A stretch of 64,000 nucleotides of DNA from Thermodesulfovibrionia bacterium (GTDB lineage Bacteria; Nitrospirota; Thermodesulfovibrionia; JACRGW01): NCBI GenBank assembly GCA_919902655.1, contig CAKKRL010000162.1, forward strand, positions 251-64,250. Reading direction: 5' to 3'. Positions 1,770 through 19,447 of the stretch are shown one piece after another (the stretch's first letter is position 1; each line of letters opens with the position of its first letter). The notes under the pieces were generated by a model that saw only the letters and a list, made by a program, of their open reading frames with translations, was not told the DNA's origin and did no database searches. Both the position numbers and the translations under genes were made by a program.

Positions 1770-2912
1770 TCAGAGAGATCTGAGCCTTCCGTCTTTAAGG
1801 ATTACCGCTTCCTTCTTATTATGATATACCAATCTAAGGGTAGGACGGAAGAATATGAAGTCCTGATGGAATGGAGTCCTTATCTTTCCTCCGAAGGAAC
1901 TGTTATCACCGAGGGCAATATGTATCGTACCCAGAATCTTTTCTGACTCAAGTATATTATCCGGCCTTGTTGCCTTATCGTTCGTGCCTATTCCGAGTTC
2001 CGCTATATTCCTGAAATTATCGTTCTCTGAAAGTTTCTTTTCAAGCACAGACCTATAGCTATCCCTTCCTTCTACCTCTACTACTTTCCCCTTTCTGACC
2101 GTAAGGTCTACTGTATATTTAAGCCTATGCGTCGGCGCCCATTCAACAATAAGCTTTCCCTCTGATGTCCCTTCAAGAGGTGCGAGATATACTTCTCCTG
2201 CAGGGAGATTGCCAAAAGAACCAGGTTTTCTAAGTATTCCTGTGTCAGAACCTGTCTTTCTCCCTTCTTTACTAAAAGAGAGTTCTGTCCCATTGGGTGT
2301 AGAGACTTCTATCCGCAAGGCCTTATTCACCTTCCCCGCTAAATCCTTCGTTCTCCTCTCAAGATCCCTCCAGTCCACAGTCATAGCCCCGAATAACATA
2401 TCGGGATCAAAGAGTGGCATACTCGCATAACGGGCCCCTGCAGCTCTTGTAATAAAATCCCTGAACCTTGTATGGCTTGTGGAATAGTTAGAAAGACCGA
2501 CCACAACATCTATGGTATTCTTCCTGTATTTAGAAATAATATCCTCTGCCTTTCTGATCTGCTCATCCCCTGCCTTCTTATCAATAAGCGCCTTCATTAC
2601 CTTCAGTTCTTTCAGTGCTTTTACTGTTTTTTCCCCAAAGGCCCTCCTCCAGACCTTTTCAGGAGGTTCAGCACCATGGGACATTAGGGCCTTATACTCT
2701 GTATATACAACCTCCTTACATAAACCCTTTCCTACCTCCGCCACAAGCCTTGCAAGGTCCTTAAGCCTCCCCCTCCTATTTCTGTCTTCAGGGGTTATTC
2801 TCTCCTCCGGCATTATCTCATCTGTGAAGACGAGCACCCTCTCCTCTTTCCTGACTCCGAGATTTATCCTGAACAGATCCTTTATTGCCTCAATGAACCT
2901 GTCATTCGACAT
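1770..2912 (-). CDS. Aminopeptidase, probably M29 (thermophilic metalloprotease / AmpS-like) family
   Basis: 380 aa cytoplasmic protein. Overall resemblance to aminopeptidase T-like proteins (…ELGIGTN…IHIALGDN…), judged from memory of the family. Confidence 0.45.
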   Translation of the reverse strand: MSNDRFIEAIKDLFRINLGVRKEERVLVFTDEIMPEERITPEDRNRRGRLKDLARLVAEVGKGLCKEVVYTEYKALMSHGAEPPEKVWRRAFGEKTVKALKELKVMKALIDKKAGDEQIRKAEDIISKYRKNTIDVVVGLSNYSTSHTRFRDFITRAAGARYASMPLFDPDMLFGAMTVDWRDLERRTKDLAGKVNKALRIEVSTPNGTELSFSKEGRKTGSDTGILRKPGSFGNLPAGEVYLAPLEGTSEGKLIVEWAPTHRLKYTVDLTVRKGKVVEVEGRDSYRSVLEKKLSENDNFRNIAELGIGTNDKATRPDNILESEKILGTIHIALGDNSSFGGKIRTPFHQDFIFFRPTLRLVYHNKKEAVILKDGRLRSL

Positions 2913-4032
2913 TTTTTATTCTTTTATTCCCTTCTCTTTCAAGTATCGTTACAACACCAAGGATAACAACCGCCTGAAGAATCAGTATAATAGCCATCTC
3001 GGTCGTCACCCTTCTTATCAGAAGGGCCGTAAGCCCGAGTGAAATTGCAAGGAAATAGATAAGTATCACTGCCTTCTTTTTTCCTTGAAGAAGTGCGTCC
3101 ATCCTGTGATGCAGATGGTCTTTACCTACATAGTCTATCCACTCCTTAACGCTCTTAACCTTCCCCTCTATGACCCGTGCAACTGTTATATATATGGTAT
3201 CGTATATGAAAATAGAAAAGATAAGGAGGGGTGCTGTTAAAGATACAAGGGGGTTATTCTCTGACCATTCGCCTTTTATAGCCAGTGCAGAAAGGATAAA
3301 ACCAAGGAATGTGCTTCCTGATTCTCCGAGAAAAATGGTTGCAGGGCCTTTAATCCTGAAATTATAGGGGAGAAACCCTAAGGAAGCACCCAGTATTGCA
3401 ATCGCCATCCATCCGAGGATAGGCTGAGCTCCCATGAAGGCAATTATTCCTATAAAAAACGCAGTGATGATCGAAAGCCCTGAAGCAAGGCCGTCCATGC
3501 CATCAAAGAAGTTCATTGAGTTAGTAATCCCCACAACCCAGAGGATTGTGAGGAAGATATTTACTGATGCGCCAAAGACCGATTCGCTTGGGAAGAGCGT
3601 AAGGAGGACCCCGGATTTTATTATAAAGAACGTGATTGCTATCTGGATCAAAAGTCTTATGCTCGCAGGTATCTCCCGTTTGTCATTTATAACTCCGACC
3701 AAAACGAGTATAGCACCGCTTGAAAGAATGGACAAAGATTGATCATCAACGATCTGATTGGACAGAAATGCACTAACCGTACCCAAATAAACTGCCAGTC
3801 CTCCGAGTAGCGGTGTTGGTTCTGCATGTACCTTCCTTTCTGCAGGGATATCGATCATTTTGAATCTTATGGCAATAAGCCTTACAGCCGGAACAATAAA
3901 GAATGAAAGTGAGGCAGAGAAAAGAAGAACATATAACCAGCGGAATCCTCCTCTGAAGAAGAAGTCTTTCCCGTAGGGAGTAAAGAGGATAACCGAAGCT
4001 ATCCCTGATAGAACAAATAGTGCCTTCACCAA
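2902..4032 (-). CDS. Polyprenyl-phosphate N-acetylhexosamine-1-phosphate transferase (WecA/MraY family, GT4 superfamily), the initiating transferase
   Basis: Multi-TM protein with the NSMNFFDGMDGLA motif diagnostic of the MraY/WecA family. Last gene of the long minus-strand polysaccharide operon. Confidence 0.85.
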   Translation of the reverse strand: MVKALFVLSGIASVILFTPYGKDFFFRGGFRWLYVLLFSASLSFFIVPAVRLIAIRFKMIDIPAERKVHAEPTPLLGGLAVYLGTVSAFLSNQIVDDQSLSILSSGAILVLVGVINDKREIPASIRLLIQIAITFFIIKSGVLLTLFPSESVFGASVNIFLTILWVVGITNSMNFFDGMDGLASGLSIITAFFIGIIAFMGAQPILGWMAIAILGASLGFLPYNFRIKGPATIFLGESGSTFLGFILSALAIKGEWSENNPLVSLTAPLLIFSIFIYDTIYITVARVIEGKVKSVKEWIDYVGKDHLHHRMDALLQGKKKAVILIYFLAISLGLTALLIRRVTTEMAIILILQAVVILGVVTILEREGNKRIKNVE

Positions 4033-5078
4033 GTAATCAGTTCCTTATACCTTTTAAGGGAATCAGAAATCTTACGGATTTCTTTACCGGTAAGACCCGG
4101 ATAGATCGGAATTGATATCGATCTTTTCCATGAAAGTTGTGTGTTGTGATATCCCTTTTCACCTGTATAGTAGTGGAGAGGTTTGAATACAGGCCTCCTG
4201 CAGGAGATTCCATCCTTTTCCATAAGCCTTATAAATCGTTCTAAATGACTTGTTTCTAATATATATCTGTAATAGATGCCCTTCCCTCGTCTCTCGTCCC
4301 TCTTTAAGGTGGTATCATAGATCCTTGCGATCTCTTCCCTCCTTTTAATAAAAGAAGGCAATCTCTTAAGCTGGCTAAGTCCAAGGGCTGCAGCCATGTC
4401 AGTCATCTTGTAGTTATATCGGAGTTTAAAACTCTCCTTCTCATCATACTCTCTTATATCCTTTGCCTTTTTTATAATATCAGACGAATCTGAAATAATC
4501 ATACCACCCTCACCCGTAGTAATTACCTTTGTGGCATAGAAAGAGAGTATGGAGACAAGGCCGTAGCTACCGACCATCCTGCCTTTATATGTAGCCCCAA
4601 GTGCCTGTGCAGAGTCTTCTATGACAGGGATATTGTATTTATCGGAAATATAAAGAAATGCATCTATATCCGCAGGCTGGCCAAAACTATGGACAACTAT
4701 TATAGCCCTTACCCTTGACTTTCTCCTTTTACGAAGATAATCTTCGACTATATAAGGGTCTATATTATAGGTTTCCCGCTCTATGTCAGCAAATCTCGGA
4801 ACTGCTCCTGTGGCCATTACCGAATTAAGGAGTGCAGAGCAGGTATAGCTCGGAATTATTACTTCATCTCCCTCTTTGATACCGAGGCATAGAAGTGACA
4901 GGTGCAGGGCGGAGGTGCCAGAGCTCAGTGCAACAGCGCCTTTAACCCTTATATACGACGCCAGGGTTTTCTCGAACTTTTCGACCTCAGGCCCCTGTGC
5001 TATTTGACCTGTTCTGATAACTCCTGATACAGCTTCTATATCCTTTTTGTCAACGCTTGGCCTTGAATGAGGGATCAT
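4026..5078 (-). CDS. DegT/DnrJ/EryC1/StrS-family PLP-dependent sugar aminotransferase
   Basis: Typical DegT architecture (…ALSSGTSALHLSL…, DSAQALG…, SFYATKVITTGEGGM). Overlaps its neighbours by 4-7 nt. Confidence 0.8.
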   Translation of the reverse strand: MIPHSRPSVDKKDIEAVSGVIRTGQIAQGPEVEKFEKTLASYIRVKGAVALSSGTSALHLSLLCLGIKEGDEVIIPSYTCSALLNSVMATGAVPRFADIERETYNIDPYIVEDYLRKRRKSRVRAIIVVHSFGQPADIDAFLYISDKYNIPVIEDSAQALGATYKGRMVGSYGLVSILSFYATKVITTGEGGMIISDSSDIIKKAKDIREYDEKESFKLRYNYKMTDMAAALGLSQLKRLPSFIKRREEIARIYDTTLKRDERRGKGIYYRYILETSHLERFIRLMEKDGISCRRPVFKPLHYYTGEKGYHNTQLSWKRSISIPIYPGLTGKEIRKISDSLKRYKELITW

Positions 5079-5704
5079 CGCTTTTTTTCTTTTACATTGA
5101 TGAACAATCTCAGGGGGCTAAAGCCCTCGGCGTTCTTCACCCTTCCCTGAATACCCCTGAAATGGGCTGAGGACCGGGCAATGTCTATGATAGAAAGCCC
5201 CTCAATATTTGTCTTCATTACCTGAGAGGAATGTGCCTTCAGGAGCTTGAGCTTCTTTTCCAGTTCTGCGTCAATATTTACGAATACTGTTGGGCTGAAG
5301 TTCTGGGTTGTTGGCCCTTCATAGAACATGACATTCCTCGTGTATCTTGTTGCCGTTATTGTGCAGGTTGATATATGACGGTGGTCCTGGTGAGTATCAT
5401 CGAAGTAATGCACAAAGATAAAGGCAGGTTTGATCTTTTTTACAATATTCTCTATCCTCTGGATAAGCTCCTGATTAATGGGTATTTCCGTATCCCTGTA
5501 ATTTCCCCAGAAGAGCTTATTAACACCTATTATCCTTGCCGATTTCTCCTGCTCTCTTCTCCTCATACCTTCAACTGCTCCGCTCTCTCCCTCTGTAAGG
5601 ACGAGCAGATATATATTATGCCCCTTATCTGCATATTTTATTAATGCCCCCCCACAACCAAATTCTATATCATCCGGATGTGAACCAATTGCAAGAATAT
5701 TCAT
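5075..5704 (-). CDS. PIG-L/LmbE-family N-acetylglucosaminyl deacetylase
   Basis: N-terminal HPDDIEFGCGG motif and the HQDH motif. Confidence 0.8.
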   Translation of the reverse strand: MNILAIGSHPDDIEFGCGGALIKYADKGHNIYLLVLTEGESGAVEGMRRREQEKSARIIGVNKLFWGNYRDTEIPINQELIQRIENIVKKIKPAFIFVHYFDDTHQDHRHISTCTITATRYTRNVMFYEGPTTQNFSPTVFVNIDAELEKKLKLLKAHSSQVMKTNIEGLSIIDIARSSAHFRGIQGRVKNAEGFSPLRLFINVKEKKR

Positions 5705-6390
5705 GAAGAAATCCTCCCTTTTCTTATCATCTCCATACCATTTTCTCCGCAGTTAAAAAGGATATCTATGCAGGATAGGTTTGGTTCAAACCCTTCATAG
5801 AGCTGTTGATATACAGGGTGTTTAAAATCCTGGATAACCACCTCTATCCCTGCCCTCTCGAAGGCATCCATGCCCATATATTTCGGTCCGTCCTTGCCGG
5901 AAAGATAGGTATCAGCCCCTACCGACCCGCAGAGGTCTATCAGCCGGCCATCAGGTTCATCCCTCGTTTCAAATTCTGATGCGATAAAAATCTTTTTCTT
6001 TATTCCAAAGAGGTCTGTAAGCATCTTTATCAGAGTGATATTAATATCTACAAGTCTCTCCCAGTTCTTTCTGTATATATCTTCGAAATAAGGAAAATAT
6101 TTTATGAAATATGGCGTCCTTCTGTAATTTGTCTCTATCGCAGTTAAATGTTTCCTCCTCCAGTCTACTCCGTTATTTATCCTCACCTCATTAATCTTCT
6201 CAGGAAATCTGTAAAGAACAGGGACTGTTAACCACTGCCATCCCTGGGATGTTTTTATCCTGTTACGGTTCTGCCATTCATTCTTTTTATACTGGACATT
6301 GTCAAGAAGTATAAATACATCAGACCTGTCTATCTTATCTATATATCCGATCCATGGCATATACTGGGGCTGATGTATAGAGGCCATCAT
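5701..6390 (-). CDS. WbqC-family protein of unknown function, as found in O-antigen clusters
   Basis: The N-terminus MMASIHQPQYMPWIGY is the hallmark of WbqC-like proteins. Confidence 0.65.
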   Translation of the reverse strand: MMASIHQPQYMPWIGYIDKIDRSDVFILLDNVQYKKNEWQNRNRIKTSQGWQWLTVPVLYRFPEKINEVRINNGVDWRRKHLTAIETNYRRTPYFIKYFPYFEDIYRKNWERLVDINITLIKMLTDLFGIKKKIFIASEFETRDEPDGRLIDLCGSVGADTYLSGKDGPKYMGMDAFERAGIEVVIQDFKHPVYQQLYEGFEPNLSCIDILFNCGENGMEMIRKGRISS

Positions 6391-8170: not shown

Positions 8171-9346
8171 TCACCTGGCACCTTGACTACCTGATCCCTC
8201 GAATCCTTTATAGAGAGATTCTAAATTATCTATTGCAATCTGTATATCGAAACCCTCTGACCGTATTCTTCCTTCTTCTCCCATAGCATCAGCCATTTCC
8301 GGGGCTGTAAGAATCTTCATAACGGCAGAAGCCATCTCTTCCGGATTTGATGGAGGGACAAGGATACCTGTTATACCATCTTTAACAACCTCTGGCACCC
8401 CTCCGACCTTTGTTGCGACTACCGGCTTACCCGCAGCCATAGCCTCGAGAAGGACACGTCCCAGACCTTCATTCAAGGAGGATAGAACCAGGATATCCAT
8501 CGAAGGTATTATATCACAAATATCCTTCCTTGTTCCTGTAAAAATCGCCTTAACCCCAAGTTTTTCTGCCATCTCTTCCATCTTCTTTCTCTCAGGGCCA
8601 TCACCGACAATTAAAAACTTCATATTTTTTAGCTCGGGAGACCTGCCTGTTTTATCTTTAAGCAGGAATGCGGCCTTCAGGAATGTTCCGCAATCTTTCA
8701 CTGGTACAAGCCTCCCTATCCATCCTATAACCTTATCTTCGGAAGAGAGGCCGAGGATCTGCCTGACCTCTTCTCTTGTTTTTTCCGACCCCTGAAATTT
8801 CTTAGTATCTATCCCGTAGGGAATGGTAATATATTTCTCCCTTCTTGCAAGTCTTAACCTCTGATAGTCTTCTATCTCAAGGTCTGTTAAGGTTGTAACT
8901 CTATCTGTAATCCCTGCTGTTATCCTTTCAGTCCAGAAGAAGAGTTTAGTCTTAATCCATCCAAAATATCCGTAAAAGATATGTCCATGGGTTGAATGGA
9001 TTATTACTTTCACCCCGTTTAACCATGCCGCCCATCTACCTAATATTCCGGCCTTTGATGTATGTGTGTGAACAACTTCCGGCCTTTCCTCTTTAACAAA
9101 CCTGTAAAGTTTGCAGAAGGAATAGAAGTCAAAGAGTGGACTTATCTCTCTTTTTATTTTCTGAACTACAGTTAAAGGTACGCCTGTCCTTTTAGAATAT
9201 TCCTCAAAGTCTTCCTGCGGTTCCTTTGTGAAACCTGTTATAATTCTCACATCATGGCCTTTTTTTGAAAGCCCCTCTCCTATCTGCATAACCGCCTCTG
9301 CCGAACCTCCCTGGTCAAGGCGGGTTATTATCTGGATAATTTTCAT
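8171..9346 (-). CDS. Glycosyltransferase family 4 (GT-B fold)
   Basis: EGLGRVLLEAMAAGKPVVATKVGGVPEVV, the classic GT4 E-X7-E region. Confidence 0.85.
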   Translation of the reverse strand: MKIIQIITRLDQGGSAEAVMQIGEGLSKKGHDVRIITGFTKEPQEDFEEYSKRTGVPLTVVQKIKREISPLFDFYSFCKLYRFVKEERPEVVHTHTSKAGILGRWAAWLNGVKVIIHSTHGHIFYGYFGWIKTKLFFWTERITAGITDRVTTLTDLEIEDYQRLRLARREKYITIPYGIDTKKFQGSEKTREEVRQILGLSSEDKVIGWIGRLVPVKDCGTFLKAAFLLKDKTGRSPELKNMKFLIVGDGPERKKMEEMAEKLGVKAIFTGTRKDICDIIPSMDILVLSSLNEGLGRVLLEAMAAGKPVVATKVGGVPEVVKDGITGILVPPSNPEEMASAVMKILTAPEMADAMGEEGRIRSEGFDIQIAIDNLESLYKGFEGSGSQGAR

Positions 9347-9364
9347 AGAATGACAGAAATAACT

Positions 9365-9769
9365 CTAACTCAACCAATTTTCAACTTTCAAATCTGGTAT
9401 TCTCACAAAATGTCTTTCATTGGATGTTATCAAAGTCAAATCATTCTTTACTGCTGTTGCTGCAATAAGGAGATCCTCTGGCGATATAACTTGTCCCCTG
9501 CTTGCTAATATTGCTGCTAAATCACCTGCGATAATTGCAATCTCTTCAGTAATAGGAAGGATAACTACTTTATCTAACACTTCTGTCTCAATCCTCTTCC
9601 ATAATATCTTATTGTCTGGCCGTCTCTGGCTACCATACCTGAGTTCCATCACGCATATACAAGATGTAAATTGGACTTCAGCAGAAATACTGGAAAGATG
9701 CTCCATAAGGGGTATATTGGGTTTCTTCTTCATGACCTCACTCAGGATATTTGTATCAAAAAGATACAT
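9365..9769 (-). CDS. vapC: PIN-domain toxin VapC
   Basis: MYLFDTNILSE… N-terminus, conserved acidic residues and the TSNERHF C-terminus. Immediately downstream of the antitoxin with a 1-nt gap. Confidence 0.8.
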   Translation of the reverse strand: MYLFDTNILSEVMKKKPNIPLMEHLSSISAEVQFTSCICVMELRYGSQRRPDNKILWKRIETEVLDKVVILPITEEIAIIAGDLAAILASRGQVISPEDLLIAATAVKNDLTLITSNERHFVRIPDLKVENWLS

Positions 9770-10039
9770 TTAACCCTTCCTCTCCTTAACAATCCTGAGT
9801 TTATGCTTATGTCGTTCTTTTAAAATCCTATCAATATCCTTGAAGAATGGGTCTCTAATACCAAGCCAACCTTTTATAGAGCCTAATCCCCTTTCAGATG
9901 GAGCAGATAGGACAGCCACTGGTTTCCCCCTTTTAGTTACAACAACCTCAGCATGGCCGTAAGCCACTCTATTTAAAAGTTCTGAGAAATGTTTTTTAGC
10001 ATCAGCTACGCTCACAGCGATCCTTGGCATAAATATCAC
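9770..10039 (-). CDS. Phd/YefM-type antitoxin paired with VapC
   Basis: About 85 aa with …VSVADAKKHFSELLNRVAYGHAEVVVTKRGKPVAVL…, a Phd/YefM signature. The true start is probably the Met at 10030. Confidence 0.75.
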   Translation of the reverse strand: MIFMPRIAVSVADAKKHFSELLNRVAYGHAEVVVTKRGKPVAVLSAPSERGLGSIKGWLGIRDPFFKDIDRILKERHKHKLRIVKERKG

Positions 10040-10094
10040 CCCCTTTAGGGCATTATAGTCATTTTGGGCAATTTAGTCAATATGACTATAACGG

Positions 10095-11258
10095 TCAGAA
10101 CCTGTAATACTCCGTGCATCTTGAACATACAGGAAAGGCCTTCCTCTCTTTCACCACACGCCTGAAGTTCCTGTATCTTTCTGAATTCCATATATCCCTG
10201 AAGGACGATTCTCGGAGGCTGCCTGCAGAGAAATTGAGGGACTGGCAGGGCCTCACAGACCCATCAGGGAAGATATACGCAACCATCCAGGGACTTATAC
10301 ACCGGTTTCTGTAACTTGCGGGCCAGAATTCGAAGTTACTGTAGTATCTTCTTATCTCCTCGTTCGTGTAGTTTGGATAGAATGAAACATCAATGCTTGT
10401 TTTCATCGACTTAATCTCTACCATCTTTTTTAAAAGCTTCTCTGGTTCTATCCTCGGGAGATCATCCCTCACGAACCCTGCCCAGTCAGGGGAGATACAT
10501 GAAAAACATTCCTTAAAAACCCTGTTATGCTCAGTATATGTATCTTTGCCAGTAAAGATTAGATGGTGGAAAGTGATGGATGTGGCACCCATCTCCTCTG
10601 CAATCCTTACTACCTCACCGAGTCTGTGATAGTTCATCTCAAATACTGTGCTCGATATGTTCACAATCGGCTTTTTTGCTCCGCTCCTGTCCTTTGTCTC
10701 CTTTAACCTTTGAAAACCAGAATAGGCTTTATCAAAGGTCCCCTCACTGCTCCTCATTTCGTCGTGTATGTCCTTTGGACCGTCAAGAGAAAAGATTATC
10801 TCATCAACCCCCAGCTCAACAATCTTCTCTGCATTATCACCGAGGAGGACGCCGTTAGTAATTATATTACATCTCATCTCTCTCTCTTTCACCATCCTTA
10901 TGATATCCGGCCATTCCCAGTATATGAAAGGCTCACCACCGAAGAGGGTGATATTCGGCCTGAATGCCCTTACATCGTTCAGCAGGGATTCTATCTCCTT
11001 CAATGATAATTGTTCCCTTAACATCTCCTGCGGATAGTCCTTCGATGAACCTACCATACCCCACTGCCCGCACATCTTGCACCTCAGGTTACAGCGGTAT
11101 GTGAGGAATAGGGAAATCGTTTCAGGATAGGCACTGTAGCCGTTAAAGAGCTTGTAAGTGAGGTAAGACAGAAACCTTCTCCTGAATGCCTGCCATCCAT
11201 AGGCAGGCTGGGATATCGCCTTGCCGATCGCCCGTTTTATATTTCTAAGAGGGATCAT
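10095..11258 (-). CDS. Radical SAM protein with a C-terminal SPASM/twitch-like Cys cluster, located inside the polysaccharide locus
   Basis: CNLRCKMCGQW (CxxxCxxC). C-terminal cysteines CISPW…RPCQ…CSRC. Overlaps the downstream DegT gene by 4 nt. Confidence 0.8.
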   Translation of the reverse strand: MIPLRNIKRAIGKAISQPAYGWQAFRRRFLSYLTYKLFNGYSAYPETISLFLTYRCNLRCKMCGQWGMVGSSKDYPQEMLREQLSLKEIESLLNDVRAFRPNITLFGGEPFIYWEWPDIIRMVKEREMRCNIITNGVLLGDNAEKIVELGVDEIIFSLDGPKDIHDEMRSSEGTFDKAYSGFQRLKETKDRSGAKKPIVNISSTVFEMNYHRLGEVVRIAEEMGATSITFHHLIFTGKDTYTEHNRVFKECFSCISPDWAGFVRDDLPRIEPEKLLKKMVEIKSMKTSIDVSFYPNYTNEEIRRYYSNFEFWPASYRNRCISPWMVAYIFPDGSVRPCQSLNFSAGSLRESSFRDIWNSERYRNFRRVVKERKAFPVCSRCTEYYRF

Positions 11259-12448
11259 TCCATCTCCATGAGCACATTGATCATTTTATCTATTGCTCCA
11301 TCATGAACCAGCGGATGGGTCGGAAGGAGGAGTAGTTTCTCTGCTATCACTGTAGCATTAGGGAAGGGGTCTGGATTCTCTTTATAACCAAGATCAAAAA
11401 TCCTGTGCATGGGTCTGAGGTACATCCTTGTAGCCTCTATTCCTTCTTTCCATAGCCTGCCTATCAATAATTCTATCTTATCCTTATCTTTGACAAGCAA
11501 TGGAAACTGGCTGAAGGCTATAAAGGAATTTTCAGGAGGTTGTGGCAGTATATATCCCTTTAAACCAGTTAATCCTCTGAGGAGGTTCATTCCATTTCTG
11601 TTCCTCATAATACTGAACTCTTCAAGTGAGTGTAGGAGGCTCTGTCCGAGCCCTGCCTGGAATGGAGTATATGCCTTTACCTCAAAATCATGATGTAATT
11701 CTCTTGATTTTAAAGGTTCAACGACTGGATAAAGCACACCATAAACCTCTGGTTTTACAATTATAGAAACGAGAATTGCCTTTATCATAATTATTAATTT
11801 GTTCACTTTCTGTTCTTTTACGAAACGATCTAACTCCTTTCCGATCAGATCGGCAATAGATTCAGAGTTAGTCACCAATGCCCCGCCTGTATAGGTAGAG
11901 AGGTTCTTCCCCCTCTGGAAGCTGAGGATCCCGATATCCCCGTTACCGCCTGTTAACCTTCCATCGCTCCTTGTCCCCAATGACTGGGCGTTGTCCTCAA
12001 TGATAAAAACATTTTTTTCATCGGCTATCCTTTTTATCTGTTCCATTGGCGAAGGGATTCCAAATAGGTGTACAGGTACTATGCAGAGAGTATCTCCTGT
12101 AATTACCTCCTCAAGTTTTAACGGGTCGAGGTTGAATGTCTCGAGGGACACCTCGCAGAGCACTGTCTTAAGGCCTGCCCTTTCTACAGGAAGTTTCAGG
12201 ATAGGTGCAGTATAGGCAGGGAGGATAACCTCCTTCTTATCCGATAATTTCTTGAGAACCTCAAGGGCTATATAGAAGGCCGCAGTGCCCGATCCAACAG
12301 CAAATGCCTCTTTAACTCCGAGAACATCTCTGAGGTCATTCTCAAATGCCTTTACGGAATCCATACCTCTTAATTCTCCCCTTATTCCTCTCATGAGGTC
12401 CATAAGATTTATAGGAGTCCCTGCGCAGGGAAATTTCTTCAACATCAT
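11255..12448 (-). CDS. DegT/DnrJ/EryC1/StrS-family aminotransferase, second copy
   Basis: FAVGSGTAAFYIAL…, EDNAQSLG…, GILSFQRGKNL pattern. Confidence 0.75.
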   Translation of the reverse strand: MMLKKFPCAGTPINLMDLMRGIRGELRGMDSVKAFENDLRDVLGVKEAFAVGSGTAAFYIALEVLKKLSDKKEVILPAYTAPILKLPVERAGLKTVLCEVSLETFNLDPLKLEEVITGDTLCIVPVHLFGIPSPMEQIKRIADEKNVFIIEDNAQSLGTRSDGRLTGGNGDIGILSFQRGKNLSTYTGGALVTNSESIADLIGKELDRFVKEQKVNKLIIMIKAILVSIIVKPEVYGVLYPVVEPLKSRELHHDFEVKAYTPFQAGLGQSLLHSLEEFSIMRNRNGMNLLRGLTGLKGYILPQPPENSFIAFSQFPLLVKDKDKIELLIGRLWKEGIEATRMYLRPMHRIFDLGYKENPDPFPNATVIAEKLLLLPTHPLVHDGAIDKMINVLMEME

Positions 12449-13116
12449 CAGTCCTTTTTCCCCTGGACAACAATGGCCGGAGAAAATCTTCCAAGGGGCA
12501 TTCCTATACCGATATGCTCTATCTTCTTCATACCGAGTTCTTTAAGAATCCTCTTGATATCCTTCAGACTATTCATTCTTAAGGGCACTTTTATATAGGG
12601 GTCATGAAGCGGTGCGAGCTTGTAGCCAGCATAAATAAGAGGATTCAGGATATTCCTGAAGTCGAAATAAATAAAACCTCCCTTTTTACATACCCTCACC
12701 ATTTCCGATAATGTCTCCACCATATCCTTCCTTGCAGGCAGATTAAGGAAAAGGTTTATGCATACTACATGTTCAAAACTCTCATCCCTGAATGGAATAG
12801 ACTGGGAGATCCCCTTGACAATAGCAATTCTCTTTAGCCCTTTTTCAAGAAGCCTTTTCCTTGCCTTCAGGAGTATCTCATCCCATGGCTCCAGCCCGAT
12901 CACATCCATCACGGGACATTTGATGGATATCTCTGCAAGGAAAAGTCCTTCACCGCTGCCTATTTCAAGAAGCCTCCTATCAGGCCTGGCTGCAACAAGC
13001 TCTCCCACCTTCTTTCTTACAAGGAAAGGAAGATACCCTGCAGAATATTCTCCCATCTCCTCAGGCCTTGTAAATCCTTTTCTCAATCTATTGGCTATCC
13101 TTTCAATTACACCCAT
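12448..13116 (-). CDS. Class I SAM-dependent methyltransferase
   Basis: LLEIGSGEGLF motif I. About 220 aa. Confidence 0.75.
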   Translation of the reverse strand: MGVIERIANRLRKGFTRPEEMGEYSAGYLPFLVRKKVGELVAARPDRRLLEIGSGEGLFLAEISIKCPVMDVIGLEPWDEILLKARKRLLEKGLKRIAIVKGISQSIPFRDESFEHVVCINLFLNLPARKDMVETLSEMVRVCKKGGFIYFDFRNILNPLIYAGYKLAPLHDPYIKVPLRMNSLKDIKRILKELGMKKIEHIGIGMPLGRFSPAIVVQGKKD

Positions 13117-14186
13117 TATCTCCTCTTAAGAAGTCTTTCAGCAGCATGGAGAACCTCAAAAGGATATACCTCTCTGAGGCATTTCATGGAATCGCATTCC
13201 CTCCTTGTGCAGGGGGAGCAGTCAACATCTTTTCTAACAGTTATGATATCAGGGCTCTCAGGTATAAATCTCTTGAAATACCCTGGCCCAACAACAGCAA
13301 CAACAGGCGTCTTGACAGCGATCGCTATATGCATTGGACCTGTGTCGTTGGTGATAAATAGGTCCACTCTTTTAAGGATTGCGGCAAGTGTCTTGAGCGT
13401 AGTTTTCCCTGCAAGAACGCAGGACTCTACCTTAAGAAGTCCTGCCAGCTCTTTTGCAATCCCCTCATCATTACCTCCACCGGTGATAACCACATTAATA
13501 GGCATTCCCTCTGACAGGCCATTTATAACCTCTGCAAAATTACCTGCACCCCATCTCTTTGAAGGCCAGTCAGCCCCTGGATTTACCCCGACAAGAAGTC
13601 TGACATCAGAAAAACCGCATCCCTTCAGGATTCTCCCTGCGTTGCTTTCCTCCTCTTCCCCGAGATATATCTCGAGCTCCTTTTTTGTTTTCTTTCCTCC
13701 TATCTCCTCCAGGAGACTTGCCTGCAGATTTACATCATATAATCCAGGCATGTCTTTCTCATATATCTTTATTCCGTAAATAAATCCTCTGCCATTTGTG
13801 TCCCTTCCAGCCTTCTTGTTAGAACCTATTAAAAGAAAGACTATAGCCACTTTAAGTGCGCTCAAGATATTAACCAGAGGGAGGAGATTTATAGCCAGAG
13901 AGTATTTCTTCTTCCTCTGTGATAGAAGAAAGATTAAGGCATTCCACAATCTGCCCGGTCTAAATATAAAATCAGAGAACCTCAATTCCTGCAAGTCAAA
14001 GACAAGGAGTTCATCAAAATAGTTCAGTCCCTGCACAATCTCTTTTGCCCTGTTAACAACCCATAATGTTATGAAGGAATCCGGATATGATTGTCTCAGC
14101 CCTCTGAGAAAAGGAACAGACAGGAGGAGGTCACCGATGCCACCGAGATTCATCACAAGTATCTTATCTATTTTCTCTTTTCTCAT
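13116..14186 (-). CDS. Glycosyltransferase family 9 (heptosyltransferase-like)
   Basis: N-terminal KILVMNLGGIGDLLLSVP typical of RfaC/RfaF/RfaQ-like GT9 enzymes. Confidence 0.75.
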   Translation of the reverse strand: MRKEKIDKILVMNLGGIGDLLLSVPFLRGLRQSYPDSFITLWVVNRAKEIVQGLNYFDELLVFDLQELRFSDFIFRPGRLWNALIFLLSQRKKKYSLAINLLPLVNILSALKVAIVFLLIGSNKKAGRDTNGRGFIYGIKIYEKDMPGLYDVNLQASLLEEIGGKKTKKELEIYLGEEEESNAGRILKGCGFSDVRLLVGVNPGADWPSKRWGAGNFAEVINGLSEGMPINVVITGGGNDEGIAKELAGLLKVESCVLAGKTTLKTLAAILKRVDLFITNDTGPMHIAIAVKTPVVAVVGPGYFKRFIPESPDIITVRKDVDCSPCTRRECDSMKCLREVYPFEVLHAAERLLKRR

Positions 14187-15294
14187 ACCTCAATCCTGAA
14201 CCTGCTATCTTTTTTGTGACAGCATCCATCATATCATCTGGAGTAATAAGTTCCATACATTCCTTTCCCTTACAGACATCCTTATTGCAGGGACTGCATT
14301 TTATGCCTTTCCTTAAGACAATATTATTATCCCCTGCCGGCCACCAGAGATATGGGACAGTTGGTCCCATTGTAGATACAGTAGGAACCCTAAGGGCAGT
14401 AGCTATATGGAGGGGCCCGGAGTTATTACAAAGCAGAAGATTACAATAACTAAGAAGGGCGATAAAGTCTCTCAATCCTGCTCCTTGTATGATAACAGGA
14501 TTTCCACCCATCGCCTTCCTGATAACATCCAATTGCTCCCTGTCCTCCTCTCCTACGAAGATTATAACCTTTGCCCCATATTCCAAGATTATCCTGTCCC
14601 CAACAAGGCCAAACCTCTCTGCAGGCCATCTCTGGCTCTCATAGTATCCGCCCGGATGAATCCCGATCAAGATATCCCGCTTTTCTATCCCCTTTTCCCT
14701 GAGCATCTCCCCTGCTTTAGACCTCTCGCTCTCAGAAAGGTAGATAAAAGGCAGATGGTCTTTAATCTTTATATCGAGCGACCTCGCAAGGTCAAGCGTA
14801 TGATCGAGGACCGTCCTTTCCCCTTCACCCTTCGGTCCCTTTATATTGAAGAATATCTCCCTGCCGCTTATTTCAAAACCTATTCTGTACTTCGCCCCCA
14901 TAATGAAGGATAGAAAAGCTGTCCACAGTTCGTATGTCAGAAAGGGATCTATTATAAGATCGAATTGCCTCTGTCTGATATTTCCTATAATCCTTATCGC
15001 ATCCAATAATTTCCTCTCATATACTATAACTTCATCCACAAATGGATTCCCGAGAAGTATGTCCCTGTTGAGAAGACTGGAAAGGACTATCAGTCTTGCC
15101 CCAGGAAGACCTTGCTTTAAGGCCTCAAGGGTTGGGGTAGAGAGAACCATATCGCCTATCCTGTCATGCCTTAAAAATAATATATTCCTTATACTATCCC
15201 TCTCAGGAATAACCACCTTTCTGAAAGATAAAAATGGTATCAGAATTAACTTCCTTATCTTCAGATAGACCCTCTTGAGTAGTTCCCTTATCAT
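14164..15294 (-). CDS. Glycosyltransferase family 9 (heptosyltransferase-like), second copy
   Basis: NILFLRHDRIGDMVLSTPTLEAL N-terminus and the C-terminal GT9 pattern (…NNSGPLHIA…). Confidence 0.75.
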   Translation of the reverse strand: MIRELLKRVYLKIRKLILIPFLSFRKVVIPERDSIRNILFLRHDRIGDMVLSTPTLEALKQGLPGARLIVLSSLLNRDILLGNPFVDEVIVYERKLLDAIRIIGNIRQRQFDLIIDPFLTYELWTAFLSFIMGAKYRIGFEISGREIFFNIKGPKGEGERTVLDHTLDLARSLDIKIKDHLPFIYLSESERSKAGEMLREKGIEKRDILIGIHPGGYYESQRWPAERFGLVGDRIILEYGAKVIIFVGEEDREQLDVIRKAMGGNPVIIQGAGLRDFIALLSYCNLLLCNNSGPLHIATALRVPTVSTMGPTVPYLWWPAGDNNIVLRKGIKCSPCNKDVCKGKECMELITPDDMMDAVTKKIAGSGLRYEKRENR

Positions 15295-15308: not shown

Positions 15309-16262
15309 TTATTTTTGAATAAGCCAGAGAATCTCCAGAGCAAGAAGCTCATTTAATATCGGCATATCCGCTAAGTATGGCCTTACCACATCAACAAATC
15401 TCCTTCGGTATTTAAAGCCCCTCTTCCTCAATTTCTTCTCAAAAGCAAATCTTGTAGTAAGGCCGTAATGCAACCTTGTACCTTCTCCTCCCTTAAACCA
15501 CCCGATAGCAGACCCTATCAATTCCCTGACCTTATTCGGGGTAAAGATAACCATACTTCCTTTCTCCTTTAAGATTCTTGCCGATTCGTCAAGGAACCTT
15601 TCTTTCTGGCTATCATCAATATGCTCTATAAAATCTGCCGAAACAATAGTGTCAGCCGACAGGCCTTTAAAAGGCAGATTAGCTGCATCGGCAACAACAA
15701 ATCTTATCCATGTATCATTACCGAGCCTTTCTTCTGCAATTGTCTTTGCGACCTTTATAGATTCAAAAGAGTAATCTACGCCAACCGCCTTTGCACCTTT
15801 CATGGCCGCCCTGTATGTAAATGTCCCCACGCCGCATCCGATATCAATTATAACCTCTCCCTTTTCTGCACTTATGGAATTAGATACGACCACGATTCTT
15901 CTCTTATCAATACTATCCTCCGGTTCCCAGTATACCCTGACTGCATGATCGATACCGAGTGCCTCTATCCTCTCGTTATAATCCCTCGAGGTTATCTCCT
16001 GTGAGGAAAGAAAAGATAATAATCTCTGTGCCCTCTTTTTTATTATCCCTTTAAGTCCCTCATGCTTTAGGGCGTATCTTAAGAATTTCTCGCAGACAAA
16101 ACGATTTTTTTCATGGAAATATCCTTCTTTTTCTGCCAGTTCTGAAACATTATCTAATAATTTCAGGAGATCTTCCAGTTGGGGACGGTATCTTTTCTCA
16201 AAACCCTTCTGCCACTCCCCTTCCATCTCTATAAAATATTCATCTACCAATGACCCCTTCAT
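15309..16262 (-). CDS. Class I SAM-dependent methyltransferase
   Basis: VIIDIGCGVGTF motif I. Confidence 0.75.
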   Translation of the reverse strand: MKGSLVDEYFIEMEGEWQKGFEKRYRPQLEDLLKLLDNVSELAEKEGYFHEKNRFVCEKFLRYALKHEGLKGIIKKRAQRLLSFLSSQEITSRDYNERIEALGIDHAVRVYWEPEDSIDKRRIVVVSNSISAEKGEVIIDIGCGVGTFTYRAAMKGAKAVGVDYSFESIKVAKTIAEERLGNDTWIRFVVADAANLPFKGLSADTIVSADFIEHIDDSQKERFLDESARILKEKGSMVIFTPNKVRELIGSAIGWFKGGEGTRLHYGLTTRFAFEKKLRKRGFKYRRRFVDVVRPYLADMPILNELLALEILWLIQK

Positions 16263-18528
16263 AAATTCCCTCTATCTTCTTAATCCCTTTTTTCAGAGAA
16301 AACTTCTCATTAACCGTCCTTCTGCCGTTTTCGCCGAGTTGTCTCATCAAACCCGTGTCTCCCATAAGCCTCTCTATACCAGAGCGCAGGGAATAAGAGT
16401 CTTTTGGAGGTATGAGTATTCCATTCTCCCCGTCTGTTATTATCTCCCTTAAAGGGCCCAGGTCCGAAGCAATGACCGGTTTCCCTGCTGCCATCGCCTC
16501 GATAACTGCAATGCCGAAGCTCTCATACTCTGTGGGGAATATGAAGATATCCATTGCCTTCAACAGTGCAGCTACATCCTGTCTTAGACCTGTAAGAATA
16601 AAATATTGGTCCAGACCTTTTTTCCTAATCTCCACTTTAAATTCGTCCCTCGCTTCTCCGTCTCCTACAATAAGAAACTTGCCCCCCCGAATTTCATGGG
16701 CAGCATCGATTATTGTCTTCAAACCTTTTCTCCAGTCAAGCCTTCCTAAAAAACCTATAACAAAGCTATCTTTATTAATTCCGAGTTCCCTTCTTATTTC
16801 TGCTACATCTTCTTCGGATGGTACAATACCTGTATCCACAAAGTTATGGACAATAACTACCTTTTCCGGAGAGATCCCCTGCCTTTCTATATAGGAATCC
16901 CTCGCTTCCTTAGAGACAGCTATTACAAATCTTGCCATCCTGTTCGAAAACCTATGACCCATCAGATGTAACTTTCTTTTTAGGGGGTTCCTTATCCATG
17001 AATGGTCATGGGCAACAAGATGTTCAGTAATAATCACAGGCGTCCCTGTCATGGCCCCAACTAATTTTGCATAAAACCCTGCTCTTCCCATATGTGCATG
17101 GATGATGTCAAATCTCCCCTCTCTTGCTATCCTGTAAAGTGATAAGAGGGAACGGATGCTTAAGCTGTCCCTGAGTTCAACCTTATGGGTTATGACATCA
17201 TTCTTTTTGAGTTCCCTGTAAAGCCATCCATCCGGACAGGCAACTTCCAATCGGAAGTTATTTTTATCAATAGCTTTAGCTATATCAATTATATGCCTCT
17301 GCGGGCCTGATAATTCTGATGAATGGATTACCTGCAGTACCTTCACCTGTGGGTCAAGTAGTTTCAAATAAAGTTTCTCTGTTTGCTTTGAATTGCTTTT
17401 TATAGAGAAATGATTCTCTGCCCTTTCCCTCGCCTTTTTACCCATATCAGACATTCTTTCAGGATTCCTGAAAAGGGAGATTATTGCAGCGGCCATAGCC
17501 TTATGATTACCGGGGTCAACCAATATTGCTGTTACCCCATCAACCGCTATTTCAGGTGTCCCGCCACTTTTTGTAGCAATAATTGGTTTCCCCATTGCCA
17601 TCGCTTCCAGGTGGGACCTTCCTGAAGGCTCTGCATATGAGGGAAGAACAAAAATATTCATTGCTGCGAGTATCTGTGGCAGGTCTTTCCTGAAACCTGT
17701 GAATATAACCTTATCCGAGAGGCCTGTCTCAACTGCAAGTCTCTTTATATATCCCTCCCATTCACTGAATTCAGGAGATATATGACTTCCTGCAATAAGA
17801 AATCTCGCCTCAGGAAATTCCTCTGACACAATACCTGCAGCCTTCAAAAATATATCATGTCCCTTTTCAGGGACGATACGACTTGTGACACCAATCAGAA
17901 GGGTTTCTGCTGACATACCAAATTCCTTTCTTATCAGCTCCCCTGAGATTCCGTGGTTAAATTCCTCTGAATCAACACCGTTCTGAATAACAATGGATTT
18001 CCTGTGCGGCATTGCATCTTTATGGAATCTTCCCCTGATCGCCTCTGTAAGACAGATGAGCTTATGGGTCAGAAAGATAAAAAGTCTATCAGGGTCTATC
18101 TTTTCTGTAGTGATGAGATTCCTCGCATGCCAGACAATCTTTTTCCCTGTAATCCTTCCAGCAATTCCTCCGTATAGATTCGTCCTGAAACCGTTTGAGT
18201 GTATAAGGTCTATATTCTTTGACTTTACAATGCGAATAAGTTTAGTAATGGTTTTAATTTTTTTGAAGATATTAATGCCGAGTGGTCTTGGAAAGTCTGT
18301 GAAATGTATCTCAACTCCGAGACCCTTCAGGTCTTCCATAAAAGGCCCTTCGGATGGTAGGACTGCTACAGGTAAAAACCTTTCTCTGTCGAGATTTTTT
18401 ATAAGATAAAAAATACTCCTTTCAGCGCCACCTGTCTGAACAACATCGTGGAGATAGAGGATTTTGAATCTTCTAAACCTTTTTTGCATAAAATATAATC
18501 TCTGTCTGGAGGCTGAAAATTCTCGCAA
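16240..18528 (-). CDS. Tandem two-module glycosyltransferase (GT4 + GT4 fusion)
   Basis: Two separate GT4 E-X7-E regions: EPSGRSHLEAMAMGKPIIATKSGGTPE and ESFGIAVIEAMAAGKPVIASDLGPLRE. The true start is possibly the Met at about 18489. Confidence 0.8.
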   Translation of the reverse strand: MREFSASRQRLYFMQKRFRRFKILYLHDVVQTGGAERSIFYLIKNLDRERFLPVAVLPSEGPFMEDLKGLGVEIHFTDFPRPLGINIFKKIKTITKLIRIVKSKNIDLIHSNGFRTNLYGGIAGRITGKKIVWHARNLITTEKIDPDRLFIFLTHKLICLTEAIRGRFHKDAMPHRKSIVIQNGVDSEEFNHGISGELIRKEFGMSAETLLIGVTSRIVPEKGHDIFLKAAGIVSEEFPEARFLIAGSHISPEFSEWEGYIKRLAVETGLSDKVIFTGFRKDLPQILAAMNIFVLPSYAEPSGRSHLEAMAMGKPIIATKSGGTPEIAVDGVTAILVDPGNHKAMAAAIISLFRNPERMSDMGKKARERAENHFSIKSNSKQTEKLYLKLLDPQVKVLQVIHSSELSGPQRHIIDIAKAIDKNNFRLEVACPDGWLYRELKKNDVITHKVELRDSLSIRSLLSLYRIAREGRFDIIHAHMGRAGFYAKLVGAMTGTPVIITEHLVAHDHSWIRNPLKRKLHLMGHRFSNRMARFVIAVSKEARDSYIERQGISPEKVVIVHNFVDTGIVPSEEDVAEIRRELGINKDSFVIGFLGRLDWRKGLKTIIDAAHEIRGGKFLIVGDGEARDEFKVEIRKKGLDQYFILTGLRQDVAALLKAMDIFIFPTEYESFGIAVIEAMAAGKPVIASDLGPLREIITDGENGILIPPKDSYSLRSGIERLMGDTGLMRQLGENGRRTVNEKFSLKKGIKKIEGIYEGVIGR

Positions 18529-19447
18529 TCAGATTGACAGCCCAGTTGCTGAAGAGTCTTCTTATCCCCGTTGCCCCGTAATCGTATCCACCTGCCGGAT
18601 ATGAAACGATAGAAAAATTACATCTTGAAAGCAGTCCTTTCAATGCCTTTGGGTCGAAAAAATATAGATGGTACAGGTTATGGAGGAGATAAAGCCTGTA
18701 ACCCTCCTCATCCGACCTCCTCGGGTAAAGATGACAGTAACCATTCTTAAATTTTCTAATCGCGTATGGGTCCTCAAGGGGTTTTACCGGATTACCGAGC
18801 ATTCTGTTCAGTCGGGATAGAAAAGTCGTAACCGTTCTCCGGTTAGGGGTAACGACCAGTAATAACCCCTTGTCTCTTAATATCCTGTTGATTTCCATAA
18901 GTGTAACATCCGGATATGGCATGTGTTCAATAACATGGCAGAGGGCTACCACATCAAAACTATTATCTTCAAACCCTGCCTCCTCTATCTTACCGACATT
19001 TAAGACCGGAATATCGTAATTCTCCCTGGCGAACTCGGCTGCCCTTTCTGAAACCTCAATACCCAGGACAGCAAAACCTTTGTCCTTCGCAAGTTTCAGA
19101 AAATATCCAGCACCTGTCCCGATATCCAGAATTTTTTTATACCCATAACTATTCCGCATTTTCATAATCGGTATTAATCGATTGAGATGAACCTTCTCTC
19201 TCTTGCTTTCAAGTTCAAGTGTCTTTTCTGTCCATGTATTTCTGTCTTCTATGACCGAGGTATAATATCCTTCCCGATACATCCAATCGAGAAACTCCTT
19301 ATCAGGCCTCGGACTTATATACTGAAGCCCGCAGTTTTTACATTGAACTATCCTTGCCTCTTTCTCTGCCATGAAATGGATGACGGTAACTGTATCAGCA
19401 TTATTATATCCGCAGAGACATTTAACCTCCTCAAGTCTGAATTCCAT
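18473..19447 (-). CDS. Class I SAM-dependent methyltransferase with an N-terminal zinc-ribbon
   Basis: CLCGYNNAD…CKNCGLQY zinc ribbon, then ILDIGTGAGYF motif I. Confidence 0.75.
   Translation of the reverse strand: MEFRLEEVKCLCGYNNADTVTVIHFMAEKEARIVQCKNCGLQYISPRPDKEFLDWMYREGYYTSVIEDRNTWTEKTLELESKREKVHLNRLIPIMKMRNSYGYKKILDIGTGAGYFLKLAKDKGFAVLGIEVSERAAEFARENYDIPVLNVGKIEEAGFEDNSFDVVALCHVIEHMPYPDVTLMEINRILRDKGLLLVVTPNRRTVTTFLSRLNRMLGNPVKPLEDPYAIRKFKNGYCHLYPRRSDEEGYRLYLLHNLYHLYFFDPKALKGLLSRCNFSIVSYPAGGYDYGATGIRRLFSNWAVNLIARIFSLQTEIIFYAKKV

Follow-up and report, generated by a model that had tools for sequence, protein, structure and literature searches.

What does a radical S-adenosylmethionine (radical SAM) enzyme do inside an operon for a cell-surface glycan? 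The question is raised by one gene, whose product we call rSAM, in a 64,000-nucleotide stretch of contig CAKKRL010000162.1 from a Thermodesulfovibrionia bacterium, the whole of which we refer to as the window. A preliminary description of this DNA saw a SPASM-type enzyme and considered either an unusual sugar modification or modification of a protein. We consider it most likely that rSAM modifies a sugar rather than a protein. Our preferred scenario, to which we would give a probability of roughly 0.4, is that it tailors a nucleotide- or lipid-linked sugar of a cell-surface glycan by making a keto sugar, which a DegT-family aminotransferase would then aminate and a methyltransferase methylate. 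To our knowledge, few radical SAM enzymes act on sugars, and nearly all of these come from antibiotic pathways (BtrN, DesII, BlsE, AprD4, HygY, NeoN); if the scenario is right, radical SAM sugar chemistry would extend to primary cell-envelope glycans.

To judge from its sequence, rSAM is a genuine radical SAM enzyme of a large family. The Pfam Radical_SAM model covers residues 52–188 (E = 3.7e-22) and the SPASM model residues 320–382 (E = 8.9e-16), both with scores far above chance. The three cysteines of the CxxxCxxC motif, C56, C60 and C63, are invariant in both homologue alignments (23 and 64 sequences), and the SAM-binding motif G107-G108-E109 is invariant among the aligned homologues down to 29% identity; these motifs place the protein in the Radical SAM superfamily (PF04055), and together with the Pfam matches they bear out what the preliminary description had said of a CxxxCxxC enzyme with an auxiliary Fe-S domain. 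A word-indexed search of a 5.8-billion-protein set returned 2415 homologues, and the family amounts to 740 representative clusters at E < 1e-30. The AlphaFold2 model, built on 64 homologues (predicted local distance difference test score 92.3, predicted template modelling (TM) score 0.91), lays the protein out as a basic N-terminal two-helix extension (residues 1–37), a partial TIM-barrel radical SAM core and a C-terminal Twitch domain. The protein is deposited as MEK6693339.1 (exact match), and the identical sequence also occurs on a Hainich groundwater contig, the host being a groundwater Nitrospirota metagenome-assembled genome (MAG). The N-terminal extension (window 11148-11258) is conserved and strongly basic, with a net charge of +8 and no acidic residue, and of its two predicted helices the first is markedly amphipathic (hydrophobic moment 0.8). 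The extension might serve at a membrane surface or in (pyro)phosphate binding, a hint that the substrate may be lipid-linked.

The auxiliary domain bears on the choice between sugar and protein. The protein has ten cysteines, and outside the radical SAM motif C320, C378 and C381 are invariant in the 23-sequence alignment. The C-terminal pattern reads C320-x12-G333-x4-C338 ... C378-x2-C381, and the chain stops six residues on, at 387. The seven-cysteine SPASM motif (CX9-15GX4C - gap - CX2CX5CX3C - gap - C) is incomplete here, with neither CX5CX3C nor the final cysteine, and the Pfam SPASM model matches because it also covers Twitch sequences. When the last 89 residues were compared with all PDB sequences, the BtrN Twitch domain was the only significant match (E = 7e-4), with all four auxiliary cysteines of rSAM in register with the four of BtrN. 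In the AlphaFold2 model this part folds as two strands (326–329 and 334–336) followed by helices, so that the hairpin/helix arrangement with one set of ligating cysteines that defines a Twitch domain is present. Twitch is a truncated SPASM domain with one auxiliary cluster, and in BtrN that cluster, held by four cysteines, is the proposed electron acceptor of a two-electron oxidation (PMC9012708). Since the four cysteines of rSAM align with those of BtrN, one auxiliary cluster, not two, is to be expected. The auxiliary cysteine set noticed earlier is thus real, although it makes a four-cysteine Twitch domain and not a full SPASM domain, which removes the ground for arguing from SPASM type to modification of a peptide or protein; BtrN, the only protein with which the domain aligns, is a small-molecule aminocyclitol dehydrogenase. 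Neither does rSAM look like a SPASM maturase of RiPPs (peptides synthesised by the ribosome and modified after translation), having no RiPP recognition element (RRE, PqqD-like) or other extra Pfam domain, and no precursor-peptide gene adjacent. As a separate observation, C338 (codon at ~10245-10247) gives way to phenylalanine or tyrosine in three sequences of the 23-sequence alignment (P0095 from KSB1, P0121 and P0127, all 49-59% identical to rSAM), each with histidine at the next position; a histidine there also occurs in some homologues that keep the cysteine. The replacement may mean that another residue acts as ligand or that one iron site is open.

By its scores, rSAM is claimed by no curated family, and it is uncharacterised. 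None of its 70 NCBIfam matches reaches the cut-off, the best being the TIGR04317 tungsten-cofactor maturase (122 bits, cut-off 380); the AhbD, NirJ, HpnH, SkfB, MftC, MoaA and viperin models all fall far under threshold. Public names of the orthologues read 'radical SAM protein' only, except for one 'Heme biosynthesis protein'. The preliminary description had allowed for a well-known housekeeping family unrelated to glycans; no such family fits. In structural comparison, Foldseek placed BlsE first (E = 7e-15, TM 0.65/0.76) and SkfB and DesII next, and by fold score the order is BlsE (27.2, 288 residues aligned at 22% identity), SkfB (23.8), SuiB (22.0), ChlB (21.9), DesII (21.4), anSME (21.3), PqqE (21.1) and MoaA (21.0), with BtrN, a 214-residue chain, at 16.8 over 191 aligned residues.

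None of the three sugar-active relatives is a close one. BlsE (PDB 7VOB) is reportedly a radical 1,2-diol dehydratase, going by a later title in another paper's reference list. It was originally described as a decarboxylase (PMC3715490). For its homologue MilG, the summary of a preprint proposes 4'-oxidation and 3'-dehydration to a 4'-oxo-3'-deoxy sugar, which a pyridoxal phosphate (PLP)-dependent aminotransferase aminates. Membership of rSAM in the BlsE/MilG family is nevertheless not indicated: identity to BlsE is only 18-22%, the C-terminal cysteines follow C...C...CxxC instead of CxCxxC, the basic N-terminal extension is extra relative to BlsE, and the BlsE substrate, the nucleoside cytosyl-glucuronic acid (CGA), belongs to an antibiotic pathway, whereas CGA synthase is not present at the rSAM locus and no nucleoside-antibiotic genes lie nearby. 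BtrN (PDB 4M7S/4M7T), the 2-deoxy-scyllo-inosamine dehydrogenase of butirosin biosynthesis, provides the sole solved Twitch domain that aligns by sequence with the rSAM C-terminus, but only the C-terminal 65 residues take part in that alignment, so that rSAM does not fall into the BtrN family; Pfam and open reading frame (ORF) scans of the window and the conserved cassette described below found no 2-deoxy-scyllo-inosose (DOI) synthase. BtrN acts in tandem with the DegT-family aminotransferase BtrS/BtrR, and this partner (2c7t) is itself among the PDB matches of the DegT enzyme encoded next to rSAM. DesII (PDB 8HZV/8HZY), the deaminase/dehydrogenase of the desosamine pathway, is ~480 residues long, 12% identical to rSAM and, as far as we know, without an auxiliary cluster; it acts between the DegT enzymes DesI and DesV, ahead of the N-methyltransferase DesVI. 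What these precedents (BlsE/MilG, DesII and BtrN) share is that they form a carbonyl and that PLP enzymes of the DegT type serve in the same pathways. Two representative relatives of rSAM, P0191 and P0222, each 32% identical to it, are fusion proteins in which a GT2 glycosyltransferase domain stands N-terminal to the radical SAM/Twitch module, a direct link to glycosyl transfer. Other unusual relatives are three giants of 1324-1444 residues (P0196, P0239, P0244), with three or four radical SAM modules and up to three SPASM/Twitch modules, and three (P0185, P0197, P0252) with ~450 N-terminal residues that match nothing in Pfam.

The genomic setting points the same way. As the preliminary description had it, the gene lies within a glycan operon, which is of the Wzx/Wzy type and runs co-directionally on the minus strand from ~29.3 kb to 1.8 kb. 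The operon starts with genes for an NTP_transf_5 protein, Wza, Wzc, a Wzy_C protein and Wzx, continues with a methyltransferase, a GT2, two methyltransferases, a double GT4, a further methyltransferase and two GT9, passes through the methyltransferase MT1, the aminotransferase DegT1, rSAM, a Phd/VapC pair and the glycosyltransferase GT4b, and ends with a PHP-like protein, WbqC, PIG-L, a second aminotransferase (DegT2, PseC-like), a WecA-like protein and an M29-like protein. It thus holds six glycosyltransferase genes (GT2, double GT4, two GT9, GT4b and the WecA-like GT4-family transferase) and five for methyltransferases. The gene order differs from the one first described, in which rSAM stood between a methyltransferase and an aminotransferase: transcription proceeds from methyltransferase to DegT to rSAM, so that rSAM follows the pair. 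The reported overlap with a DegT gene is real, the TGA of DegT1 and the ATG of rSAM sharing an ATGA preceded by GGAG, but that gene lies upstream of rSAM and not downstream. DegT1 keeps its catalytic Schiff-base lysine (SFQRGKNL aligned to SFYPTKNL of 7b0d).

Much of this arrangement recurs elsewhere, in keeping with the suggestion made at the outset to look for the same neighbourhood in other polysaccharide loci. Our neighbourhood scan used one genome per GTDB species and returned 80 loci; the cassette was defined from rSAM orthologues of at least ~40% identity, leaving aside more distant relatives, and partners were counted among loci with enough flanking sequence. The best match outside the window is only 64% identical, and orthologues at 40-64% come from Planctomycetota (Scalindua, Brocadiaceae, Anammoxibacter), Omnitrophota, Elusimicrobiota, Latescibacterota, Thermodesulfobacteriota, Zhuqueibacterota, Poribacteria, a Cytophagia MAG and a Clostridia MAG; a protein search added a KSB1 orthologue at 59%. 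Whether derived by tblastn with the window proteins or by independent ORF clustering of 46 loci plus the window, the cassette has the same order and strand, [GT9 GT9] MT1 DegT1 rSAM GT4b PHP WbqC [AAA] PIG-L [DegT2] WecA-like, and it is common to at least ten mostly uncultured bacterial phyla. How often each partner occurs near rSAM is given in the table below. DegT1 and rSAM, like rSAM and GT4b, are for the most part separated by -50 to +50 nucleotides, and therefore most loci have no room for a precursor-peptide gene; a 4-nucleotide stop/start overlap is found in eight loci, the window included. Our literature searches (WbqC, BshC with radical SAM, radical SAM in O-antigen or capsule) found no description of the rSAM subfamily or of the cassette. 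The enzyme is an uncharacterised variant within the known Twitch radical SAM class, in a gene context unprecedented for that class.

Two lines of thought were abandoned. The paralogues of 28-37% identity (30 loci, 107 neighbour proteins compared with Pfam) have heterogeneous surroundings, led by B12-radical SAM proteins (6), MgtE (5) and GT2 (4), and with no common theme they were left out of the definition of the cassette. A link to the anammox S-layer glycan, raised by the early named homologues in Scalindua and Brocadiaceae, was dropped as well, the window being Nitrospirota and the paper on the Kuenenia S-layer O-glycan describing no gene cluster (PMC5088730).

A sugar substrate is favoured, then, because the cassette is conserved, GT2 fusions exist, the nearest structures are those of BlsE and DesII, and most loci leave no space for a peptide gene. 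The keto-sugar version of this idea builds on the match to the BtrN Twitch domain, the BlsE/MilG precedent, the retained lysine of DegT1 and the lack of another evident source of the keto group, no short-chain dehydrogenase/reductase (SDR), GFO or other nicotinamide adenine dinucleotide (NAD)-dependent dehydrogenase being conserved in the cassette across the orthologous loci. Suppose that the [4Fe-4S] cluster at the CxxxCxxC motif reductively cleaves SAM and that the resulting 5'-deoxyadenosyl radical takes a hydrogen from a carbinol carbon of the sugar, leaving an alpha-hydroxyalkyl radical. This radical might be oxidised via the four-cysteine auxiliary cluster, as in a BtrN-like dehydrogenation, or might lose the neighbouring hydroxyl or ammonia in a 1,2-elimination like those of BlsE and DesII; both fates would lead to a keto (or keto-deoxy) sugar. 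Its keto group would, in most genomes, be turned into an amine by the translationally coupled DegT, and the adjacent methyltransferase would methylate that amine; the whole would be a way to an (N-methyl)amino sugar that depends on neither NAD nor O2. The analysis shows the domain make-up, the pattern of cysteine ligands, the fold neighbours and the conserved, modular gene context; what we infer is the substrate, the site of attack, the keto product and its hand-over to DegT. The unusual sugar modification of the preliminary description is accordingly favoured as to the sugar, for which the cassette, the GT2 fusions and BlsE/DesII speak, and more conjectural as to the modification itself; the pairing with the aminotransferase (32 of 39 loci) is common but not obligate.

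This last point deserves attention, since several observations weigh against the keto-sugar scenario. At least six rSAM loci have neither DegT1 nor MT1: one of Scalindua sp. (L005), one of a Brocadiaceae MAG (L010) and four of Omnitrophota (L028, L031, L045, L046), the latter with type II secretion or pilin-like genes ahead of rSAM. Conversely, among five contigs examined around DegT1 homologues of 40-47% identity, rSAM adjoins in three (L087, L089, L090), whereas in L086 and L088 MT1-DegT1 is directly followed by GT4b-PHP-WbqC-PIG-L or by PHP, without rSAM. The coupling of rSAM to DegT1 is therefore common but not obligate, and neither enzyme needs the other in cis. In addition, the nearest PDB relatives of DegT1 do not tell one class of substrate from another; a comparison of MT1 with sugar N-methyltransferases of solved structure gave only generic class I methyltransferase matches; the fold likeness of rSAM is generic in the SPASM/Twitch group, with the peptide-modifying SkfB, SuiB and ChlB scoring nearly as well as BlsE; and its identity to any characterised enzyme is at most 22%. 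An obligate dependence of DegT1 on rSAM is rejected by the same three-of-five count. The idea that rSAM is an obligate part of a WbqC/PIG-L module fails too, because all three WbqC-centred contexts hold WbqC and PIG-L without rSAM (two with DegT and WecA-like genes, one with GT4). MT1, on the other hand, is upstream of DegT1 in each of the five DegT1-centred loci, directly so in four. The cassette thus consists of a core, GT4b-PHP-WbqC-PIG-L-WecA, to which MT1-DegT1 and rSAM are optional and separable additions, and this modularity is the main weakness of the keto-sugar/DegT1 scenario. A further variation is the Scalindua-type cassette (L002, L003, L004, L006, L008, L040 and L082, from Scalindua and a Brocadiaceae MAG), in which genes for a NodB-type deacetylase and for a NodU/CmcH-type carbamoyltransferase separate DegT1 from rSAM. 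Most such loci have an extra GT2 (MGS_GT-like) after WbqC; L003, L008, L040 and L082 are without GT4b, and L002 and L006 have both GT4b and the extra GT2.

The explanation that best accommodates an independent, optional rSAM is a stand-alone sugar epimerase, which would abstract a hydrogen and return one to the opposite face in a redox-neutral reaction requiring no partner. Twitch-type radical SAM enzymes do include the sugar epimerases HygY and NeoN, and a self-contained reaction fits best the loci without DegT1 and MT1. We nevertheless think an epimerase unlikely, as the homologue alignments offer no conserved non-ligand cysteine that could donate the hydrogen.

A more far-reaching possibility follows from the core module itself, whose GT4, PIG-L and WbqC proteins, we infer by analogy, resemble a bacillithiol- or mycothiol-type route (BshA-BshB-BshC; MshA-MshA2-MshB-MshC). 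GT4b matches BshA and MshA after stp2, PIG-L matches BshB1, and the PHP gene stands after the GT4 gene as the MshA2 phosphatase comes after MshA, all cassette family scores being under the curated cut-offs. In the closest GTDB orthologous locus (L001, 11164-13791, plus strand) GT4 and PHP-like parts are fused in one 875-residue ORF, a fusion that would imply consecutive steps, like the MshA/MshA2 or SPS/SPP pairs. The best fold match of the predicted WbqC model is BshC, and MshC is matched too; by sequence, WbqC gave only chance-level PDB matches (E ~0.8-1) and the PHP protein none, and permissive Pfam scans of both proteins found no further informative family. The core steps might then start with the transfer of N-acetylglucosamine to an acceptor that carries a phosphate; after dephosphorylation and de-N-acetylation, an amino acid would be joined to the freed amine at the expense of ATP. 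Unlike the thiol pathways, in which we know of no radical SAM enzyme, the cassette closes with a WecA-like lipid-carrier transferase and lies within Wzx/Wzy and GT9 glycan loci, for which reason a glycan residue is a likelier product than a soluble thiol. That a thiol-type route was recruited, in ten or more phyla of mostly anaerobic, uncultured bacteria, to build a unit of a cell-surface glycan, with rSAM performing a reaction new for its class (such as contracting the glucosamine ring to give an aminocyclitol, or forming an aminoacyl-sugar cross-link, neither of which would be plain keto formation), strikes us as quite improbable as a whole. Its WbqC component has an interest of its own: WbqC is a domain of unknown function in O-antigen loci, and the predicted BshC-like fold suggests how amino acids might be joined to amino sugars in O-antigens, linking that step to low-molecular-weight-thiol biosynthesis.

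The ring contraction can also be considered by itself, as an HpnJ- or calditol-synthase-like contraction, or other C-C rearrangement, of a glucosamine installed by GT4 and freed by PIG-L, giving a carbocyclic (aminocyclitol-like) unit. In the making of the hopanoid cyclitol ether, HpnI adds N-acetylglucosamine, HpnK deacetylates it and the optional radical SAM enzyme HpnJ contracts the ring, the calditol synthase Cds being similar (PMC13459092). The cassette follows the same logic, with GT4b as the most constant neighbour of rSAM (39 of 43 loci), PIG-L present and versions without rSAM in existence. The likeness to HpnJ is limited to this pathway logic: Pfam finds no B12-binding domain in rSAM, the window holds no hpn genes, and we would count such a reaction as very unlikely. 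Least probable of all, and hardly to be expected, is that rSAM acts on an aminoacyl or peptidyl group, either an amino acid put on glucosamine by a BshC-like WbqC or a protein of the glycan machinery; the best PDB sequence match being the sactisynthase SkfB (E = 1.8e-14), the high fold ranks of SkfB, SuiB, ChlB and anSME, and the constancy of WbqC (32 of 38 loci), whose fold makes an aminoacyl-sugar plausible, would favour it, while the missing RRE/PqqD-like domain, the single auxiliary cluster predicted, the lack of a conserved small ORF adjoining rSAM, the three of three WbqC-centred loci without rSAM and an anSME model outside the 25 best of 70 sub-cut-off NCBIfam matches all argue against it.

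Returning to the keto-sugar scenario, the likeliest chemistry is an anaerobic version of a known transformation. If rSAM only makes a keto sugar for transamination, it would be a useful and unsurprising anaerobic alternative to NAD-dependent enzymes. The subfamily reaches through uncultured, mostly anaerobic Nitrospirota, Brocadiales, Omnitrophota, Elusimicrobiota, Latescibacterota, KSB1 and Thermodesulfobacteriota, and rSAM offers a testable handle on a widely conserved, unannotated cassette.

Table 1. Features of the rSAM locus in the window, with the number of loci in which each partner lies near rSAM
Feature	Position	Strand	Basis or remark	Loci
rSAM/Twitch enzyme, 387 residues, ATG start	10095..11258	minus	ORF, Pfam, AlphaFold2 model, fold matches	
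Codons of C56-N-L-R-C60-K-M-C63 (CxxxCxxC motif)	11070..11093	minus	translation; predicted site of the SAM-cleaving [4Fe-4S] cluster	
Twitch-type auxiliary-cluster domain, residues 318-387, C320/C338/C378/C381	10098..10307	minus	BtrN Twitch sequence match	
DegT1, DegT/DnrJ/EryC1-family PLP aminotransferase	11255..12448	minus	Pfam, NCBIfam; directly upstream of rSAM	32/39
MT1, class I SAM methyltransferase, 222 residues	12448..13116	minus	upstream of DegT1	28/39
Two GT9 (heptosyltransferase-family) glycosyltransferases	13116..15294	minus	frequent upstream cassette part	
Phd-family antitoxin	9770-10039	minus	phd_fam, E 2.2e-13	
VapC/PIN toxin	9365-9769	minus	Pfam	
GT4b, GT4 glycosyltransferase	8171..9346	minus	best family matches stp2, BshA, MshA; most constant neighbour	39/43
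PHP / CehA-McbA-type metallo-phosphoesterase-like protein, 522 residues	6387..7955	minus	family matches	27/39
WbqC-family protein	5701..6390	minus	predicted fold like BshC, class I aminoacyl-tRNA-synthetase catalytic domains	32/38
PIG-L/LmbE-family de-N-acetylase	5075..5704	minus	best family match BshB1	24/37
DegT2, PseC-like second DegT aminotransferase	4026..5078	minus	only in a minority of loci	
WecA/MraY-family polyprenyl-phosphate N-acetylhexosamine-1-phosphate transferase	2902..4032	minus	ECA_wecA 128.6 bits, sub-cut-off; last conserved cassette gene	22/35

The Phd/VapC pair sits between rSAM and GT4b and interrupts an otherwise conserved cassette. The 80 related loci (L001-L080) gave no PIN match at this position, and in the 46 orthologous loci no gene family there is shared with the window; the pair is an insertion peculiar to the window and not a cassette part elsewhere. 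Just past the rSAM stop codon, at 10080..10052, lies a sigma-70-like promoter match (11/12, TTGACT-17-TATAAT).

The five class I SAM methyltransferases of the operon are encoded at 12448-13116, 15309-16262, 18473-19447, 19448-20239 and 20974-21864 (minus), and their number would predict a heavily methylated glycan. The two-module GT4 protein has 762 residues (16240-18528, minus). Directly upstream of the operon is a 643-residue ORF (29412-31343, minus) without a Pfam or NCBIfam match, and a 358-residue ORF at 35090-36166 (plus) likewise has no Pfam match. Genes for rmlABD, an SDR (37828-38790) and UDP-glucose dehydrogenase lie at 37.8-43.6 kb. The window also encodes a second radical SAM protein of 361 residues (33327-34412, plus), with best sub-threshold matches to the AhbD, MftC and NirJ-type SPASM families. 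It adjoins an ATP-binding cassette (ABC) transporter pair on the opposite strand (31466-33005), and might be part of a system for peptide maturation or for a cofactor that has nothing to do with the glycan operon.

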